The notes beneath the pieces were generated by a model. The model was not told where the DNA came from and did not search any database. It was given only the letters and a program-made list of their open reading frames with translations. The position numbers and the translations under genes were made by a program. From sequence record OR449013: DNA of 64,000 nucleotides; one strand, 5' to 3'. This DNA comes from Escherichia phage Mangalyan. Below, piece by piece: positions 42,459 through 56,652 of this stretch (within the stretch, counting starts at the first letter, position 1; every line of letters starts with the position of its first letter).

Positions 42459-42654
42459 TAAGTTCTTCTCTTTTCTTTTACCGAGTAATTCGGGTTTTCT
42501 GTTCTCTTCGGTTTGAAGGGGTATGGAGATACACCTGAGTGAACAGGGTGAACAACCGAACCATTGGCTATGGCATTAGCATGGCGAAGCGGACGGGTGA
42601 CGAAAGAGGGGCCGGAGGACACCAGTCACTGCCATATGATATATGGGTGATAAC

Positions 42655-43193
42655 CTGAAGAGTCTGAATAAGTGTTTAAGTACCAGTCAGAGGAAAAGGT
42701 GAATGGTAGCCGAAGGGGGAGGGGGGTTACCTGCTTCTGTAAACATGCATCTGAAATACTACTTTAGATAACCTGAACCTGCCTTTCTGACAAATATTCC
42801 CTATTAAACTTGAATTATTTATAGAAAATACCACAACACCACTTAAGTCTTTGATTTTACACACAAATCTTACAGATATTAAACCTCTCTATTTAACATA
42901 CCTGTAACATATACTATACTCCACCTGTCTGATCAATTTCCCCAACTACATCCCCATATTTTCCCTGTCTGTACTACCCCTGCCCCGCCGGGAGTCCCGT
43001 CATATCTGGCTTTCCAGCAAATATCACACCCACAAATATCATCACCTGAAGAGGGTTTCATCCCATAATACATGCCTTACCTGAAGAGCGCTTCATACAC
43101 CACATAAATTTTTTAATTGACCCCCTCCCCGCCGCCGGAGAGGTTGGCTTTTCCCACACAGACCTGGAGAGTCAGCCAGAAATATCTGAAGAG
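42655..43193. repeat. four dispersed copies of about 15-bp motif CCTGAAGAG(G/C)G(T/C)TTCA
   Basis: CTGAAGAG at about 42655, 43046, 43081, 43186. Confidence 0.7.
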
Positions 43194-43750
43194 GGTCTAG
43201 TTCTGCCCTGTCATAAGCGGTAGCGACTGGAGTGCTGCTAGGCGGACGAAATGGGAATACTTCTCATTCTTATAACAATTCTCAAATATCGAGGCAGTGA
43301 GGCAAATTAATAGGTGAGGCCGTTCACACAGTGGCACAACATTTGCAACCTATCTTGTGGGATTGAATGAGAATACCTATCATTGTGAGAACTGTTATCA
43401 TTACGGGCAATTTAACATAATACCCATTATGCGCACCACTGGCGATACATACAGGGATTGATAACATGGGTTACTGTTTACGCACATAACAATTATATTT
43501 CTTACTATTTGTGTGGGATATAGTTAGCAGCCGATAGATTAGATATTAACCTGCAGACTTCTGACCGTCCAGACGTCTAAACGCCCACACACCAAGGATT
43601 ATACATACACTCCTGAATGTAAACAGGGCCGCAAAAATGCTACCATACAAGCTTGTAAATTTTTCATGCAGCACTTGACAAAGAGGAGAAAAACTTGTCT
43701 GACATAATGTGACCTAACTGACACAACATGACACTTTTACACACCTATTA

Positions 43751-43820
43751 GTTTACACACTGGATTGTTTACATTCCTGATTGTTCACATGCTAACCATT
43801 TACATGATTGACTGTTTACA
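43751..43820. repeat. iteron-like array: five copies of GTTTACA (variants GTTCACA, ATTTACA) at 15-16 bp spacing
   Basis: copies starting about 43751, 43767, 43783, 43798, 43814. Confidence 0.75.
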
Positions 43821-43833
43821 CACCGATAATCAG

Positions 43834-44083
43834 CCATGCCATTCGTTTGCATGACAATAATTATACATGACAATAATCGCACTGATCATAATTAGCATGA
43901 CATAATATAAAAGCAGGGCAACTATTAGCAGATCTATAGTTGCCTTGCTTGTTATGTCATGATTAACTAAATACAAGGCAACTATGATCTGATTAATAGT
44001 TTGCAGACAAACTATCACGGGGGTGATGGTTACTGCTTTTATATTATGTCGCGACTCCGTCGCGCCATGCCATTCGTTTGCAT
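43834..44083. repeat. direct 19-bp repeat CCATGCCATTCGTTTGCAT (two copies) flanking inverted repeats GGCAACTAT / ATAGTTGCC
   Basis: 19-mer at 43834-43852 and 44065-44083; palindrome arms at 43917-43925 / 43936-43944; second related palindrome about 43977-44005. Confidence 0.7.
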
Positions 44084-44697
44084 AGTTGCCTTATTGTTAC
44101 AGATAAAATAATTGTATTGTTAATTATTTCTTATCTTTCTATTAGTCATCTAATGATTTCAGTTAATATAGTAACGTACAGTAAACATTAGACGACTAAA
44201 GATTTCTATGCTTATGGTAACCTAACGTGACAATTCCAGACTGTTTACGAAAAATGTTGACACCTGGGCCGATTTATGTTATGCAGTTTACACGAATAAT
44301 TATTTTATGCAGGTATTGACTATTCCGTTATTCTATGGTTGGAATAAATGCTTAGCAGGCTATAGAATGGCGAGCGTACGTAAATTCTGAGATCTGGCGG
44401 CTATAGTTATACTCGATTTTTCACGTAGAAAACGCTTTTGTAGTTATGTAAGTGTATGACTTATAAAGTTGACAAGCTATTGAATATATGCATCAGGTTA
44501 AATTTTGTGCAAATGCTGCATTACGTGCAATTTTGGAAGGAAAAACGTGTAAAAATGGCCCTGCTACCACACAATGAAAAATTATGCAATAGTTATTTTA
44601 TATGTATGTTTGTACAGTGTGTGGGATTGATGGCTCGTCAATTATTCCACTTGCCAGGTAGGGCCGTTTATGGTAGGGGGAAGAGCAGACAAAAAGA

Positions 44698-46190: not shown

Positions 46191-46401
46191 AATGTTTTCC
46201 TCTCTTCTGGTTGTTGTGTGGGCACTTTTGCCCCTTCAAGATAAATGTTACCCCACCACCTGGCAGATGTCAACGGTTTTTATAGTTCTTATATGACAGG
46301 CAGGCCCGGTGATTGTCTCCACCCGTCGCCAGGTGCCTGCCGTGAAACAAGTATAACAAAAAACAGGACCATTGCAAGCCCTGTTTTGTAGTTTATAAGG
46401 A

Positions 46402-55096: not shown

Positions 55097-55465
55097 GATT
55101 TTTTATCCTCTCTGTTAATTAGTGTGGTGTTGTTCACCTTGCGAGGATAAGAATAACAGAACTATCCGAGCTGTCAACCATTAGTTAGAATTATTTTTTG
55201 GGCAGAATTCTCCAGCCGCCGCCCCTGCCAGGTTAACCATCATTTTTTCGTACTCTTCTTTATGTTCCAACGCTCCCGCCATAGCCTTTTCAACCAGGGC
55301 GATAACTTCAGCGGCATTGATCGCTACATTTTCCAGGGGATTATATTACTTTTCATTTTTGTACCTCTTCTGTAGCTGCTTACTTTATAGCGTGGACCTG
55401 CCAGGCTGGCCCCGCCAGGTTGCAACGGTTAGCGCATCAGGTTAGAATTTTTTTTTTGAAAAGTG

Positions 55466-55494
55466 TTGACAGCGGCCCCGCCAGGTGGCACAAT
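55466..55494 (+). promoter_or_regulatory. candidate rightward promoter driving tandem structured units
   Basis: TTGACA 55466-55471, 17-bp spacer, CACAAT; GC-rich spacer GGCCCCGCCAGGTGG. Confidence 0.4.
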
Positions 55495-55510
55495 ATACCT
55501 ATCGAAAGGA

Positions 55511-55735
55511 CGGCAGGCACCGGTGACGGGGGAGACAACCACCGGGGATGGGCGCTGCATAAAATGAGAACGGTTATCATTATCATTTAAAAATTTATGC
55601 AAAAAGTCCTTGCTTTCTTTGTCCTGTGTGATACTATAATAACAAGCCGGGGCAACAGGGGCCGGGAGACAATCACCGGGGGTGCCCGTTATTCTGCAAA
55701 CGAGAATGATTATCATTCAAAATTCTAAATGAGAA
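55511..55735 (+). ncRNA. two tandem about 85-nt related units (candidate small structured RNAs or regulatory elements)
   Basis: unit A about 55511-55600 and unit B about 55649-55735 share GGGAGACAAYCACCGGGG and GAGAAYGRTTATCATT; second unit preceded by TATAAT 55635-55640; no ORF with RBS. Confidence 0.3.
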
Positions 55736-55899
55736 CTCCTCGCATTTAATAAATTTAATTAGCATGCTAATTACCCTCCGTAACAATTTCCTATAAAACA
55801 GTATCCCATAAAATATTCCCATATAGAAATTTTAAAAATCCATTTCTGAAAACGAAAAATCGATTTCGTCCCCAAAAATTTCAGGTCGAGATCCGGAAC

Positions 55900-56025
55900 G
55901 ATTTCCAGAAAATCCGATTTAGAAAACGAAAAACAGATCGAGTACTGAGAAATTTATCGAGAAAAATTTTCAGAAAATCCAAGCCATGAAATGAAAAGTA
56001 GATCGAGTACTGGAAAAATTGTACC
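55900..56025. repeat. tandem about 65-bp AT-rich direct repeat (two units) within a larger repeat-rich spacer
   Basis: AGATCGAGTACTG at about 55935 and 56000; CAGAAAATCC at about 55908 and 55971; GAAAACGAAAAA at about 55849 and 55922. Confidence 0.7.
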
Positions 56026-56319
56026 GCAACCCACTGATAGTGATGGGTTTTCCGTCATAAATCACTAAGAGTGAGTGGAGAAAGGTATGGTGGAGAGGTG
56101 TGTATGTGTGGGAAATATGGAACGGTGATCTCGAGTATGGTGCAAACGGCTAGATAGATTGGCACAATTTTCCGCGCTTGTGTTGAAAAAATCCATTTTA
56201 GTTTTCGATCCATTTTCTGATTTTCTAAGAATTTTAAAATATCTATGTGTTCAAAATATCAGGAGAAAATACATTTTAGAAATTCCCCTGATTTCTGGCA
56301 ACTTGGCAATTTAAAAATA

Positions 56320-56652
56320 TCAGGTGCCCAGTTTGTTCTTTCCTTTATATAAACGCAAGGGTATAGTTTTTGTAACAGTCCACCTTCCCACACCTTCCCA
56401 GTTCCAGTTGTAGGCATGGTACCCGGTTACGCATGCACTGCTAGAGTGGTCATAGGCATAAGAGAACGCTATACGCACCAAATGGAACCAGTCTTTCCAC
56501 GGTTGTGGTCCGTAAGCTTTTCTCCAACACCGACACAAACTAAATGTCTCAAGAATAGGCAGGATAACAAATCCATACACCGCCACCAGAATAGCCAGCG
56601 CAATGATTGTCAGGAATACATACCCTGCAGTTGAAACGATGATCTCTGTCAT
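56320..56652 (-). CDS. membrane protein (110 aa)
   Basis: N-terminal YVFLTIIALAILVAVYGFVILPIL. Confidence 0.5.
   Translation of the reverse strand: MTEIIVSTAGYVFLTIIALAILVAVYGFVILPILETFSLCRCWRKAYGPQPWKDWFHLVRIAFSYAYDHSSSACVTGYHAYNWNWEGVGRWTVTKTIPLRLYKGKNKLGT

Follow-up and report, generated by a model that had tools for sequence, protein, structure and literature searches.

In this work, we describe a conserved locus of the rV5-like bacteriophages, in which three tandem AT-rich repeats most likely form, judging by their sequence and arrangement, a fixed iteron-like array at the core of a cis-acting hub. The DNA analysed, further called the window (the whole stretch of 64,000 nucleotides of Escherichia phage Mangalyan, record OR449013), comes from a Vequintavirus, an rV5-like coliphage. 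The repeats are non-coding, AT-rich, under purifying selection and present at a single locus per genome, with conserved number, spacing and order and with promoters of conserved orientation. They may serve as the protein-binding array of a candidate transcription-activated replication origin, analogous to oriE/oriF of phage T4 and the primary origin of phage T7, which we regard as a serious possibility, still somewhat short of probable. The "regulatory hub or origin" proposed in the original prediction is a reasonable class of explanation, since the repeats are non-coding, conserved, promoter-adjacent and placed in an AT-rich unstable stretch. The literature searched contained no description of this locus and, as to the origin or packaging site in the group, only the skew analysis by which an rV5-like origin was sought without success (PMC3606486).

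Repeat array

Three tandem units of 74, 65 and 65 bp fill positions 55817-56020 of the window. The repeat search gave one family of three 65-nt copies (55817-55881, 55891-55955 and 55956-56020) with start-to-start spacing of 74 and 65 bp; relative to the reference copy 55891-55955, identity is 62% for the first and 74% for the last. When the region was compared by self-BLAST with all 64 kb of the window, 55835-55954 aligned with 55909-56020 (70% over 121 nt, E = 2.6e-7). Both searches confirmed the 65-bp AT-rich repeats which the original prediction had placed at 55840-56030, and what it had called additional copies just upstream turned out to be a third, more degenerate unit. The 65-bp period was missed by Tandem Repeats Finder, because the units are only about 70% alike, and the sole find of this program was a 12-bp sub-repeat at 55950-55977.

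All units are read on the plus strand. The degenerate U1 (55817-55890) is 74 bp long. U2 (55891-55955, 65 bp) contains CAGAAAATCC at 55906, GAAAACGAAAAA at 55922 (found also at 55848) and the core AGATCGAGTACTG at 55935-55947, while U3 (55956-56020, 65 bp) contains an A5T4 tract, CAGAAAATCC at 55971, GAAATGAAAAG at 55988 and the core AGATCGAGTACTG at 56000-56012. Exact AGATCGAGTACTG occurs at these two sites (55935 and 56000) only; with up to two mismatches allowed, six matches were found in the window against 1.08 expected. The A content of the array, 0.43, is the maximum among 204-nt stretches of the window (top 0.1%). A CRISPR-like array was considered and rejected, as the similarity of 62-78% extends over the full length of the unit and strains do not differ in the sequence between the cores.

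Organization of the hub

The array is situated inside an ORF-poor hub of about 1.2 kb (55100-56320), between early genes on the minus strand. Window positions 55.5-56.3 kb correspond to about 116.4-117.6 kb in rV5. Its left part begins with promoter P1 (55466-55499, plus strand; TTGACA-17-CACAAT with TG before the second hexamer), detected by the promoter scan in orientation opposite to the flanking genes and matched by same-position promoters in phiTE, KP12 and 6S. It is followed by GC-rich unit 1 (55500-55560, plus strand), with G-runs on the non-template strand, and by a degenerate 7-1-7 palindrome box TGAGAACGGTTATCA (55565-55579). A copy related to GC-rich unit 1 was noticed at 46305-46343 on the minus strand. 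Promoter P2 (55610-55637, plus strand), with TTGCTT and the extended -10 TGTGATACTAT, was read from the sequence; in the window it lies under the scan threshold, and the homologous site scores as TTGCAA-17-TATATT in phiTE and KP12. Altogether seven G-runs of at least three are located on the non-template strand directly after P1 and P2. The adjacent promoters mentioned in the original prediction are supported by these predicted sites, which are directed into the repeats.

Downstream of P2 lies unit 2 (55644-55700, plus strand), the DNA of which is 81-94% identical to that of other genera and subfamilies; its sequence is conserved and its structural support in consensus folding is weak. Next come a Fur-box-like 7-1-7 palindrome box CGAGAATGATTATCA (55701-55715; consensus TGAGAATNATTCTCA) and a perfect, genus-conserved 18-bp palindrome TAATTAGCATGCTAATTA (55756-55773). 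Genome-wide, the 7-1-7 boxes are confined to the hub and the convergent non-coding region (42.6-44.5 kb of the window).

To the right of the array, a variable spacer of about 160 bp (56021-56182) separates the two blocks, with majority-residue conservation of about 0.80, indels that are not multiples of three and no conserved ORF. The nearly invariant right block (56183-56243) is 78% A+T and carries the motifs AAAAATCCATTT and GATCCATTTTC; taken to 56300, it holds an imperfect inverted/related copy of the repeat unit, and no other DNA of the hub is less stable. Three AAAATATC(A) motifs, at 56236, 56253 and 56314, span 56236-56321, and at the matching position other genera have AAATATCA clusters. 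Just past the stop codon of the upstream gene, a hairpin TCAGGAGAA / TTCCCCTGA (56259-56291, minus strand) is followed by a U-rich tail. The original prediction did not contain the right-block copy of the unit, the 160-bp spacer, the larger gene-free hub (55100-56320) or the cross-genus conservation.

Conservation in related phages

In the alignment of 17 Vequintavirus sequences, the majority-residue fraction in the repeat blocks is 0.97-0.98, like that of the flanking genes, with about 0.80 in the spacer, and the repeat locus is under purifying selection. Among GenBank Vequintavirus records, 115 of 116 cover 80% or more of the query in alignments free of large indels. All genomes examined have three units; the copy number does not vary, and expansions are absent from a set of more than 116 genomes.

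The same architecture is found in phiTE (Certrevirus), Klebsiella phage KP12, Salmonella phage 6S and 10 IMG/VR contigs. The shared order begins with sigma70 promoters (two or three, opposite in strand to the neighbouring genes), GC-rich units and Fur-box-like palindromes, and ends with three units, each terminated by GATCGAG, the variable spacer and the very AT-rich right block. In phiTE, KP12, 6S and the 10 contigs it reads as boxes, three GATCGAG cores and AAATATCA motifs. Core spacings in the relatives are 63/78, 67/74 and 67-68/74-76, next to 74/65 for the window units; across genera the unit spacing is thus 63-78 bp and the distance from first to third core 139-143 bp. The promoters are directed into the array in all genera, and a conserved third promoter, P3, precedes the first unit by 15-25 bp in KP12, 6S and three further lineages. 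KP12 is an unassigned member of Vequintavirinae, and its array is nearly identical to those of IMG/VR contigs of about 146 kb.

The hub of the Phapecoctavirus phiWec181 keeps promoters and boxes, with different repeats devoid of GATCGAG. The hub is single-copy per genome; in phage FV3 GATCGAG has 9 sites per 137 kb, 2 of them in the array, and is not enriched elsewhere. An apparent second genomic copy was dismissed, as the BLAST matches at two places per record were offset self-alignments of the repeats and FV3 has a single copy. No hub homologue was found among 5,426 E. coli genomes, and the lone match on plasmids was a whole phage genome. The comparison with relatives, which had been named as a check of the original prediction, went in its favour: the repeats do not code for protein, purifying selection acts on them and relatives have kept them.

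Coding potential and neighbouring genes

It is hardly credible that small protein-coding genes include the repeats. Minus-strand (T-rich) ORFs of 33-114 aa can be drawn over them, and such ORFs are annotated in GenBank (rV5 ORF198/199, FV3_00183, KP12_24 and a 101-aa ORF in 6S). However, even inside the genus these ORFs have no conserved start, frame, length or sequence, indels of 1, 2 and 4 nt are present, phiTE has no such ORF, the gene table of CP057073.1 has no CDS at the locus and the repeat blocks are equally invariant at all three codon positions. On both strands, ORFs over the locus vary in frame and length among close relatives, and phiTE lacks them. A 52-aa minus-strand ORF (MDRKLKWIF...) was rejected as a gene, its start and stop being kept in some relatives with the middle frame-shifted.

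The neighbouring genes all belong to PHROG families of unknown function, with no significant Pfam domain, and no initiator or DNA-binding gene adjoining the hub was recognisable from Pfam and PHROG assignments of the neighbours. A small co-oriented HTH-like gene upstream of P1 in phiTE and phiWec181 was considered as a hub-linked DNA-binding gene and set aside, having no Vequintavirus homologue.

Curvature, folding and transcription across the hub

DNA bending, which the original prediction had associated with A-tract-rich repeats, is not clearly supported: the predicted intrinsic curvature is moderate only. In the dinucleotide wedge model, the end-to-end ratio is 0.91 per 100 bp (top 2-5% of the window), and twelve other window sites are more strongly curved (0.78-0.85). 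Consensus folding of the array gave long-range pairing of the right block with U2/U1 and almost no covariation, because the alignment columns are invariant. By duplex energy, pairing of the two blocks is stronger than that of shuffles for either strand (z = -2.4 and -2.8), so this gain leaves DNA and RNA undistinguished.

Folding of single RNA strands has bearing on another explanation, which sees in the array a boundary of transcription or a regulatory element. Units, boxes and palindromes would then be putative sites bound by a regulator of the phage or by a nucleoid protein of the host, such as H-NS, and, together with minus-strand hairpins and opposing promoters, would stop or gate read-through between early-gene blocks; we consider this rather unlikely, yet worth attention. 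Minus-strand RNA of 55815-56300 folds far better than shuffles (z = -3.66), whereas the plus strand is no better than them (z = -1.0). Minus-strand hairpins with U-runs stand at both edges: at 55842-55879, within U1, a 16-bp hairpin precedes a U-run (z = -2.73), and the hairpin at 56259-56291 is probably a terminator that also carries an SD-like sequence. The latter (alignment columns 52-81) has two compensatory pairs in the genus, with G-U pairs on the minus strand only; both sides are changed in 2 sequences and A-U is replaced by G-U in 4.

Strand composition also steps exactly at the hub, amid genes facing one way: the plus strand is more C-rich to the right of it (from -0.072 to -0.130) within an all-minus-strand gene block. 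No origin-type sign switch of GC skew was found at the hub, and the step is opposite to the signature of a bidirectional origin and fits a transcriptional boundary better. The exact H-NS high-affinity 10-mer TCGATAAATT (PMC2094087) at the U2/U3 junction (55951-55960, minus strand), unique in the window and in the FV3 genome, is in line with such a boundary, as are the boxes, which in KP12 and 6S precede P3 by about 60 bp, an activator-like placement, and recur in the other non-coding region as regulator sites might. Against it, a simple insulator needs no 1.2 kb with a fixed three-unit array spanning 139-143 bp, the hub has no linked regulator gene and the H-NS motif is exact in Vequintavirus only.

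The plus-strand promoters P1-P3 would also allow for a non-coding RNA of which the array forms the body and whose repeated A-rich modules would titrate, as a decoy or sponge, a nuclease or RNA-binding protein of the host, like the antitoxin mimic pseudo-ToxI of phiTE. This we find unlikely. The promoters aim at the array, P3 stands immediately before unit 1 in four lineages and the predicted transcribed strand is extremely A-rich, but plus-strand folding stays at shuffle level and no convincing terminator follows the array in the window, phiTE, KP12 or 6S. Rfam gave nothing at gathering scores in the window; the search by E-value gave weak unrelated matches in the window and zero in five other-genus loci. 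Repeats of type III antitoxins are of about 34-45 nt, and the units here measure 63-78 nt against 36 nt for ToxI. Their copy number is rigidly three, unlike that of an arms-race decoy, and the AAAAATTTTTT palindromes and GATC-containing cores resemble duplex-DNA sites. A tandem-repeat anti-defence RNA is nevertheless known in an rV5-like phage (PMC3475682), and GAAAATCC is shared by the pseudo-ToxI repeat junction and the units described here. Both loci consist of tandem non-coding intergenic repeats in phages of the same subfamily (PMC3475682), but pseudo-ToxI has 36-nt units, variable copy number and clear ToxI similarity, whereas the hub units are constant in number and show no resemblance to ToxI or to Rfam families. 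Moreover, the phiTE pseudo-ToxI is not syntenic with the hub and sits near tRNAs and the terminase.

Possible packaging site

The hub could also be taken for a pac site of headful packaging, where terminase would bind the flanking repeated motifs and cut in the variable spacer, as in P1 and SPP1; this appears improbable. Two conserved motif blocks surround a variable 160-bp centre, as short repeated-motif clusters flank a central stretch in P1/SPP1 pac. GATC is present in every core, and P1 pac hexamers contain GATC. The P1/SPP1 sites, however, are in or beside the small terminase gene, unlike the hub, from which the terminase lies about 55 kb away (in FV3, 58.5-60.1 kb for terminase and about 116 kb for the hub). 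Three GenBank records happen to begin close to the hub, no more than a few hundred bases away, but their starts differ in position and about one is expected by chance. Genome ends were judged from literature only: Vequintavirus genomes are circularly permuted and headful-packaged (PMC3606486; PMC8407724; PMC13211470), yet PhageTerm on the bov Vequintaviruses gave plain circular permutation with no fixed ends (PMC8407724). KPP-1, of the same subfamily, has a 514-bp direct terminal repeat in the other, convergent non-coding region, to which the hub shows no homology. Because this terminal repeat maps there, the other large non-coding region is a better candidate for packaging or terminus function.

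Candidate replication origin

Origins of phages and plasmids are usually marked by repeats together with AT-rich stretches (PMC7145576). At the hub, the predicted promoters P1 and P2 (with P3 elsewhere) aim at an A+T-rich region, and the three evenly spaced repeats are syntenic in four genera and 10 IMG/VR contigs, in the manner of oriE, which is analogy only, because the sequences are unrelated. The unwinding element suggested in the original prediction agrees in part with these results. The repeats do lie within one of the least stable and most AT-rich stretches of the window, but the minimum of stability falls in the right-hand block 56183-56282 and not in the tandem units; this block belongs to the top 0.1% of AT-rich 100-bp segments, and its composition fits an unwinding region. 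The label "secondary" has no basis, since the group lacks a known primary origin (PMC3606486).

As a model of origin function, host RNA polymerase would initiate early at two or three sigma70 promoters (P1, P2 and, in some genera, P3), with transcription running against the surrounding genes and into the array. The transcripts, G-clustered at the 5' end and then A-rich, would open the DNA and/or make a primer hybrid across the A-rich array and the very AT-rich right block. A putative phage or host protein would bind the three GATCGAG-containing units and the neighbouring palindromes, organising the DNA for loading of the phage polymerase and helicase-primase, the latter being T7-type in rV5-like phages (PMC3606486). 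Protein binding, R-loop formation or priming, and origin activity are what we infer from this arrangement.

Several observations speak against the origin. The units of 63-78 bp are far above classical iteron length, and minus-strand promoter-like sites in the right block would make transcription over the array convergent, by which melting would not be favoured. The skew step, the lack of a recognisable initiator gene adjoining the hub and the different repeats of phiWec181 weigh in the same direction. The DnaA box TTATCCACA, with up to one mismatch, is absent from the window hub; elsewhere, one 1-mismatch match each was found in phiTE, KP12 and 6S and none in phiWec181 and 2L372D.

More broadly, the hub may represent a novel origin, or an equally essential nucleoprotein assembly site, of Vequintavirinae and partly of Phapecoctavirus and Plateaulakevirus. 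In it, three GATCGAG units of about 70 bp over about 140 bp would be read by a protein and fired by host-polymerase transcripts, and Fur-box-like palindromes would link it to the second non-coding region, where the genome ends of some genera would lie; this wider proposal we hold tentatively, as conceivable rather than probable.

Collections for phage therapy and biocontrol of E. coli, Klebsiella and Salmonella make wide use of rV5-like phages, and the hub offers a single conserved gene-free candidate for their origin or another essential cis element. GenBank records cover it with doubtful small ORFs, annotations that knowledge of the element would correct. For genome engineering such knowledge would indicate what to leave intact and what could drive plasmid amplification in infection, and the motif set (GATCGAG units, TGAGAATNATTCTCA boxes and AAATATCA) would serve to fish for binding proteins.

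Comparison with known origins

The closest parallels come from T4 which, like the phage studied here, is a large, virulent, circularly permuted myovirus. Its oriF and oriG consist of a promoter and an A+T-rich unwinding element forming an R-loop, while oriE combines an early promoter with evenly spaced direct repeats, syntenically conserved in relatives and of undefined role (PMC3016281). In oriE, oriF and oriG an early-used promoter leads into A+T-rich DNA, as the predicted promoters do at the hub, and the T4 origins have no sequence motifs common to one another (PMC3016281). On the other hand, the oriE repeats are of 12 nt and the hub units, exactly three, of 63-78 bp; oriF and oriG use MotA-dependent middle promoters, whereas those of the hub are plain sigma70-type; and origin activity is demonstrated for T4, the hub being a candidate.

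Iteron origins (lambda ori, P1 oriR, RK2 and R6K) are similar in having direct repeats with GATC within them, placed beside an easily melted AT-rich block. They differ in iteron length of 17-22 bp, the hub units being three to four times longer (63-78 bp), and the hub is devoid of DnaA boxes and of an adjacent initiator gene. The 13-mer consensus of oriC is GATCTnTTnTTTT, which GATCTGTTTTTCG on the minus strand of U2 resembles in Vequintavirus only.

In the T7 primary origin, tandem promoters 1.1A/1.1B are followed by an AT-rich stretch; it uses the phage's own RNA polymerase and is not known to have an iteron array or palindromic boxes. The hub shares with it the order of two tandem promoters and AT-rich DNA, and the replisome of rV5-like phages is likewise T7-type, with a gp4-like helicase-primase (PMC3606486).

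Results

A repeat search and self-BLAST against the 64-kb window (units aligning to each other at E = 2.6e-7) both recovered the predicted 65-bp tandem repeats. There are three copies, U1 (55817-55881), U2 (55891-55955) and U3 (55956-56020), whose starts are spaced by 74 and 65 bp; U1 and U3 show 62% and 74% identity to the reference copy U2, and an exact AGATCGAGTACTG occurs at 55935 and 56000. The additional copies suspected upstream exist and constitute a third, degenerate unit, and the remaining motifs of the original prediction were located where it had placed them. TRF did not report the 65-bp period. On the + strand, the A content of the array is higher than that of every other 204-nt stretch in the window.

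The repeats are situated within a 1.2-kb ORF-poor gap (55100-56320), hereafter the hub, and the real genes on either side of them are all small, of unknown function and encoded on the minus strand. The region matched 121 phage records, nearly all of Escherichia Vequintavirus (80-95% identity), which are rV5-like myoviruses of ~137 kb; window positions 55740 and 55100 are equivalent to FV3 116255 and rV5 116394, and FV3 contains the locus in one copy. Reading along the + strand, a hypervariable stretch (55210-55390) is followed by promoter P1 (55466-55494, +) with a GC-rich unit, a degenerate palindrome (55565-55579), promoter P2 with an extended -10 (55610-55637, +) and a second unit, the palindrome CGAGAATGATTATCA (55701-55715) and a perfect 18-bp palindrome (55756-55773). 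Then come the three tandem units, a 160-bp spacer and the right block of 78% A+T (56183-56243), where the AAAATCCATTT motif recurs along with imperfect inverted unit copies; AAAATATC motifs come next, and last a hairpin directly adjoining the next gene at its stop codon. Promoter-plus-GC-rich-hairpin cassettes occur twice on the + strand in the hub (55466-55700) and a third time on the minus strand (46290-46380), between genes at ~46.3 kb; their promoter spacers have GCCAGGTGG in common, and their units GGAGACAAYCACCGG.

The repeats are conserved in relatives, with the same ordered elements and three-unit array found beyond the genus; this cross-genus conservation, as read from sequence comparison, is the key result of our analysis. 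Phages of Klebsiella, Salmonella, Pectobacterium, Enterobacter, Raoultella and Aeromonas share unit 2 (the segment after P2) and its palindrome at 81-94% identity, and Phapecoctavirus shares them at ~71-74%; outside this segment those genomes have no DNA similarity to the window. The sequence of unit 2 is better conserved than any predicted structure, and no Rfam family exists for it. The other genera keep this order of elements, with the flanking genes on the other strand: P1 with unit 1 comes first and P2 with unit 2 next, then between one and four palindromes matching the consensus TGAGAATNATTCTCA; the three tandem units follow, and a variable spacer separates these from a block with AAA(A/T)CCATTT and AAATATCA motifs. 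KP12 (unassigned Vequintavirinae) and Salmonella phage 6S possess a third sigma70 promoter between palindromes and tandem units, the latter following the pattern AAAAATTTTTTC ... AGAAAAAATACG.TTT ... GAAAAC..GATCGAG(A/T)AC.

In phiTE (Certrevirus) the GATCGAG cores are 63/78 bp apart; KP12 has 67/74 and 6S has 67/75, and the units of the window are spaced by 74/65. A pattern scan of IMG/VR yielded 34 loci, ten with the 7-1-7 palindromes (boxes) upstream, and all ten have exactly three cores, 67-68/74-76 bp apart; single-match loci were rejected as chance, flanking elements being absent save for isolated chance matches in two. Because of these spacings in phiTE, KP12, 6S, the IMG/VR loci and the window, the first-to-third core distance is 139-143 bp throughout, and the copy number is constant. 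GATCGAG is not enriched in the rest of the genome. Aeromonas phage 2L372D retains boxes, GGTCGAGATC and GATCGAGACC, and phiWec181 (Phapecoctavirus) retains promoters and four boxes, its repeats being different. Directly upstream of P1, co-oriented with the hub promoters, phiTE and phiWec181 carry a small gene (phiTE_079, L021 853-1284; BDU12426, L025 1066-1332). With 51% identity over 53 aa, the two are homologous across Certrevirus and Phapecoctavirus, and they share an HTH-like stretch, GGTVHQVA..TGL.V; no homologue was found in Vequintavirus.

GenBank records cover the locus with inconsistent small ORFs; the ORFs that can be drawn differ in frame, length and sequence among close relatives, indels among relatives are of 1, 2 and 4 nt, and the CP057073.1 gene table has zero CDS in the hub, making a coding function very improbable. 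In a 17-sequence alignment the majority-residue fraction of the repeat blocks (0.97-0.98) equals the level of flanking genes, the spacer (~0.80) and the 55210-55390 stretch (0.72-0.80) being less conserved. Judged from these alignments, the locus is non-coding yet under selection.

Hypothetical proteins annotated over the hub (rV5 ORF198/199, FV3_00183, KP12_24 and a 6S CDS at L023 1615-1920) show no conservation between relatives and are probably artefacts of a T-rich strand poor in stops. A strong Shine-Dalgarno (AAGGAGG in most relatives) stands 9 nt ahead of an ATG at 56278 on the minus strand, whose ORF (MDFLLLIF...) has 31-98 codons and a variable C-terminus in relatives, and just 7 codons in the window and DrSchubert; this Shine-Dalgarno is one arm of a conserved hairpin (56259-56291, minus strand). 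CP057073.1 (137,565 bp), entered in the database as a plasmid of E. coli RHB39-C03, circular and non-mobilizable, comprises an entire Vequintavirus genome and probably represents a carrier-state or contaminating phage. Sixteen GenBank MG0656xx records labelled 'Campylobacter phage' match E. coli Vequintaviruses at 83-96% identity over the locus, and their host label looks doubtful.

As to the expected DNA bending, the curvature predicted by a dinucleotide wedge model is moderate (top 2-5% of the window), and many sites are stronger. The locus is indeed AT-rich and of low duplex stability, but both properties are most pronounced in the right block (top 0.1-0.2% of 100-bp windows) rather than in the array itself.

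The minus-strand RNA of 55815-56300 folds beyond shuffles (z = -3.66), the plus strand no better than them (z = -1.0); right block/array complementarity exceeds shuffles on both strands, and in the RNAalifold structure the right block pairs with U2/U1, with almost no covariation because the columns are invariant. A non-coding RNA bearing the repeats we consider improbable: Rfam gave no credible match, and the A5T6 palindrome, GATC-containing core and rigid copy number look like protein sites on duplex DNA, not RNA modules. A tandem-repeat antitoxin mimic, pseudo-ToxI, is known from the related phage phiTE (PMC3475682), but it lies near tRNAs and terminase and has 36-nt units of variable copy number, so the hub array differs from it in location, unit length and copy-number behaviour. 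Hairpin 56259-56291 has two compensatory pairs, A-U to G-U changes compatible with the minus strand alone and a U-rich tail, and probably terminates transcription of the upstream gene; U1 contains another minus-strand hairpin, also with a U-run.

Over window ~46-64 kb (FV3 106.6-137 kb plus 0-6.6 kb), + strand GC skew changes at the hub from -0.072 on the left to -0.130 on the right, inside a same-strand gene block, and AT skew steps from -0.118 to -0.070. The step is real; its sign is opposite to that of a bidirectional origin, and it may better fit a boundary of differently transcribed blocks. In rV5, a skew search for the origin gave just transcription-linked switches (PMC3606486).

The TGAGAATNATTCTCA palindromes occur in the window at 55565-55579, 55701-55715 and 43252-43266 (half-site at 43366) and in FV3 at 105319, 105453, 116080 and 116216, being confined genome-wide to the hub and a convergent non-coding region. 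There are 1-4 copies per genus examined, frequently 29 bp apart, and the consensus is one base per half-site off the Fur 7-1-7 box TGATAATNATTATCA. The U2/U3 junction carries an exact H-NS high-affinity motif, TCGATAAATT (55951-55960, minus strand), which is found nowhere else in either the 64-kb window or the 137-kb genome of FV3. Boxes in an activator-like position, this exact 10-mer, the hairpins at the hub edges and the skew step speak for a regulatory or insulator array, in our estimate possible but unlikely. Elsewhere, at 1421-1506, four tandem 21-bp copies of palindromic GTGTCCGTATCACGGACAG beside very AT-rich 1320-1420 look like an operator array.

The second large non-coding region (42600-44500), where + and - gene blocks converge, contains four CCTGAAGAG-type repeats besides the palindromic box and AAATATCA motifs that it has in common with the hub; it holds some of the window's most AT-rich DNA, and the most curved adjoins it at ~44.5 and 45.4 kb. 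The 514-bp direct terminal repeat of Klebsiella phage KPP-1 (Mydovirus; PMC9862379) sits in a convergent non-coding gap without homology to the hub. By synteny, this gap would correspond to window 42.6-44.5 kb, which is thereby a candidate for the pac or terminus region; that the hub serves in packaging is therefore less likely, and we regard a pac site there as quite improbable.

Discussion

The hub is a conserved single-copy non-coding locus with a central fixed three-unit array, inward promoters and adjoining AT-rich DNA. Among known classes, a transcription-activated replication origin would fit it best, an assignment we make tentatively. Against it we counted that searches for an initiator gene, a DnaA box and origin-type skew found none in support, and that classical iterons are much shorter than the hub units. 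The literature searched on origins and pac sites of this phage group does not describe the locus. As a repeat-plus-AT-rich cis element it belongs to a category already known; its value is that of a concrete, easily tested origin candidate, its function being one we infer, for a therapeutically used phage group. In favour of an origin, the rV5-like phages encode a helicase-primase of T7 type (PMC3606486), and T4 offers parallels. There, oriF and oriG combine a promoter with an A+T-rich unwinding element and an R-loop, and at oriE an early promoter is accompanied by direct repeats that are evenly spaced and kept in relatives (PMC3016281).
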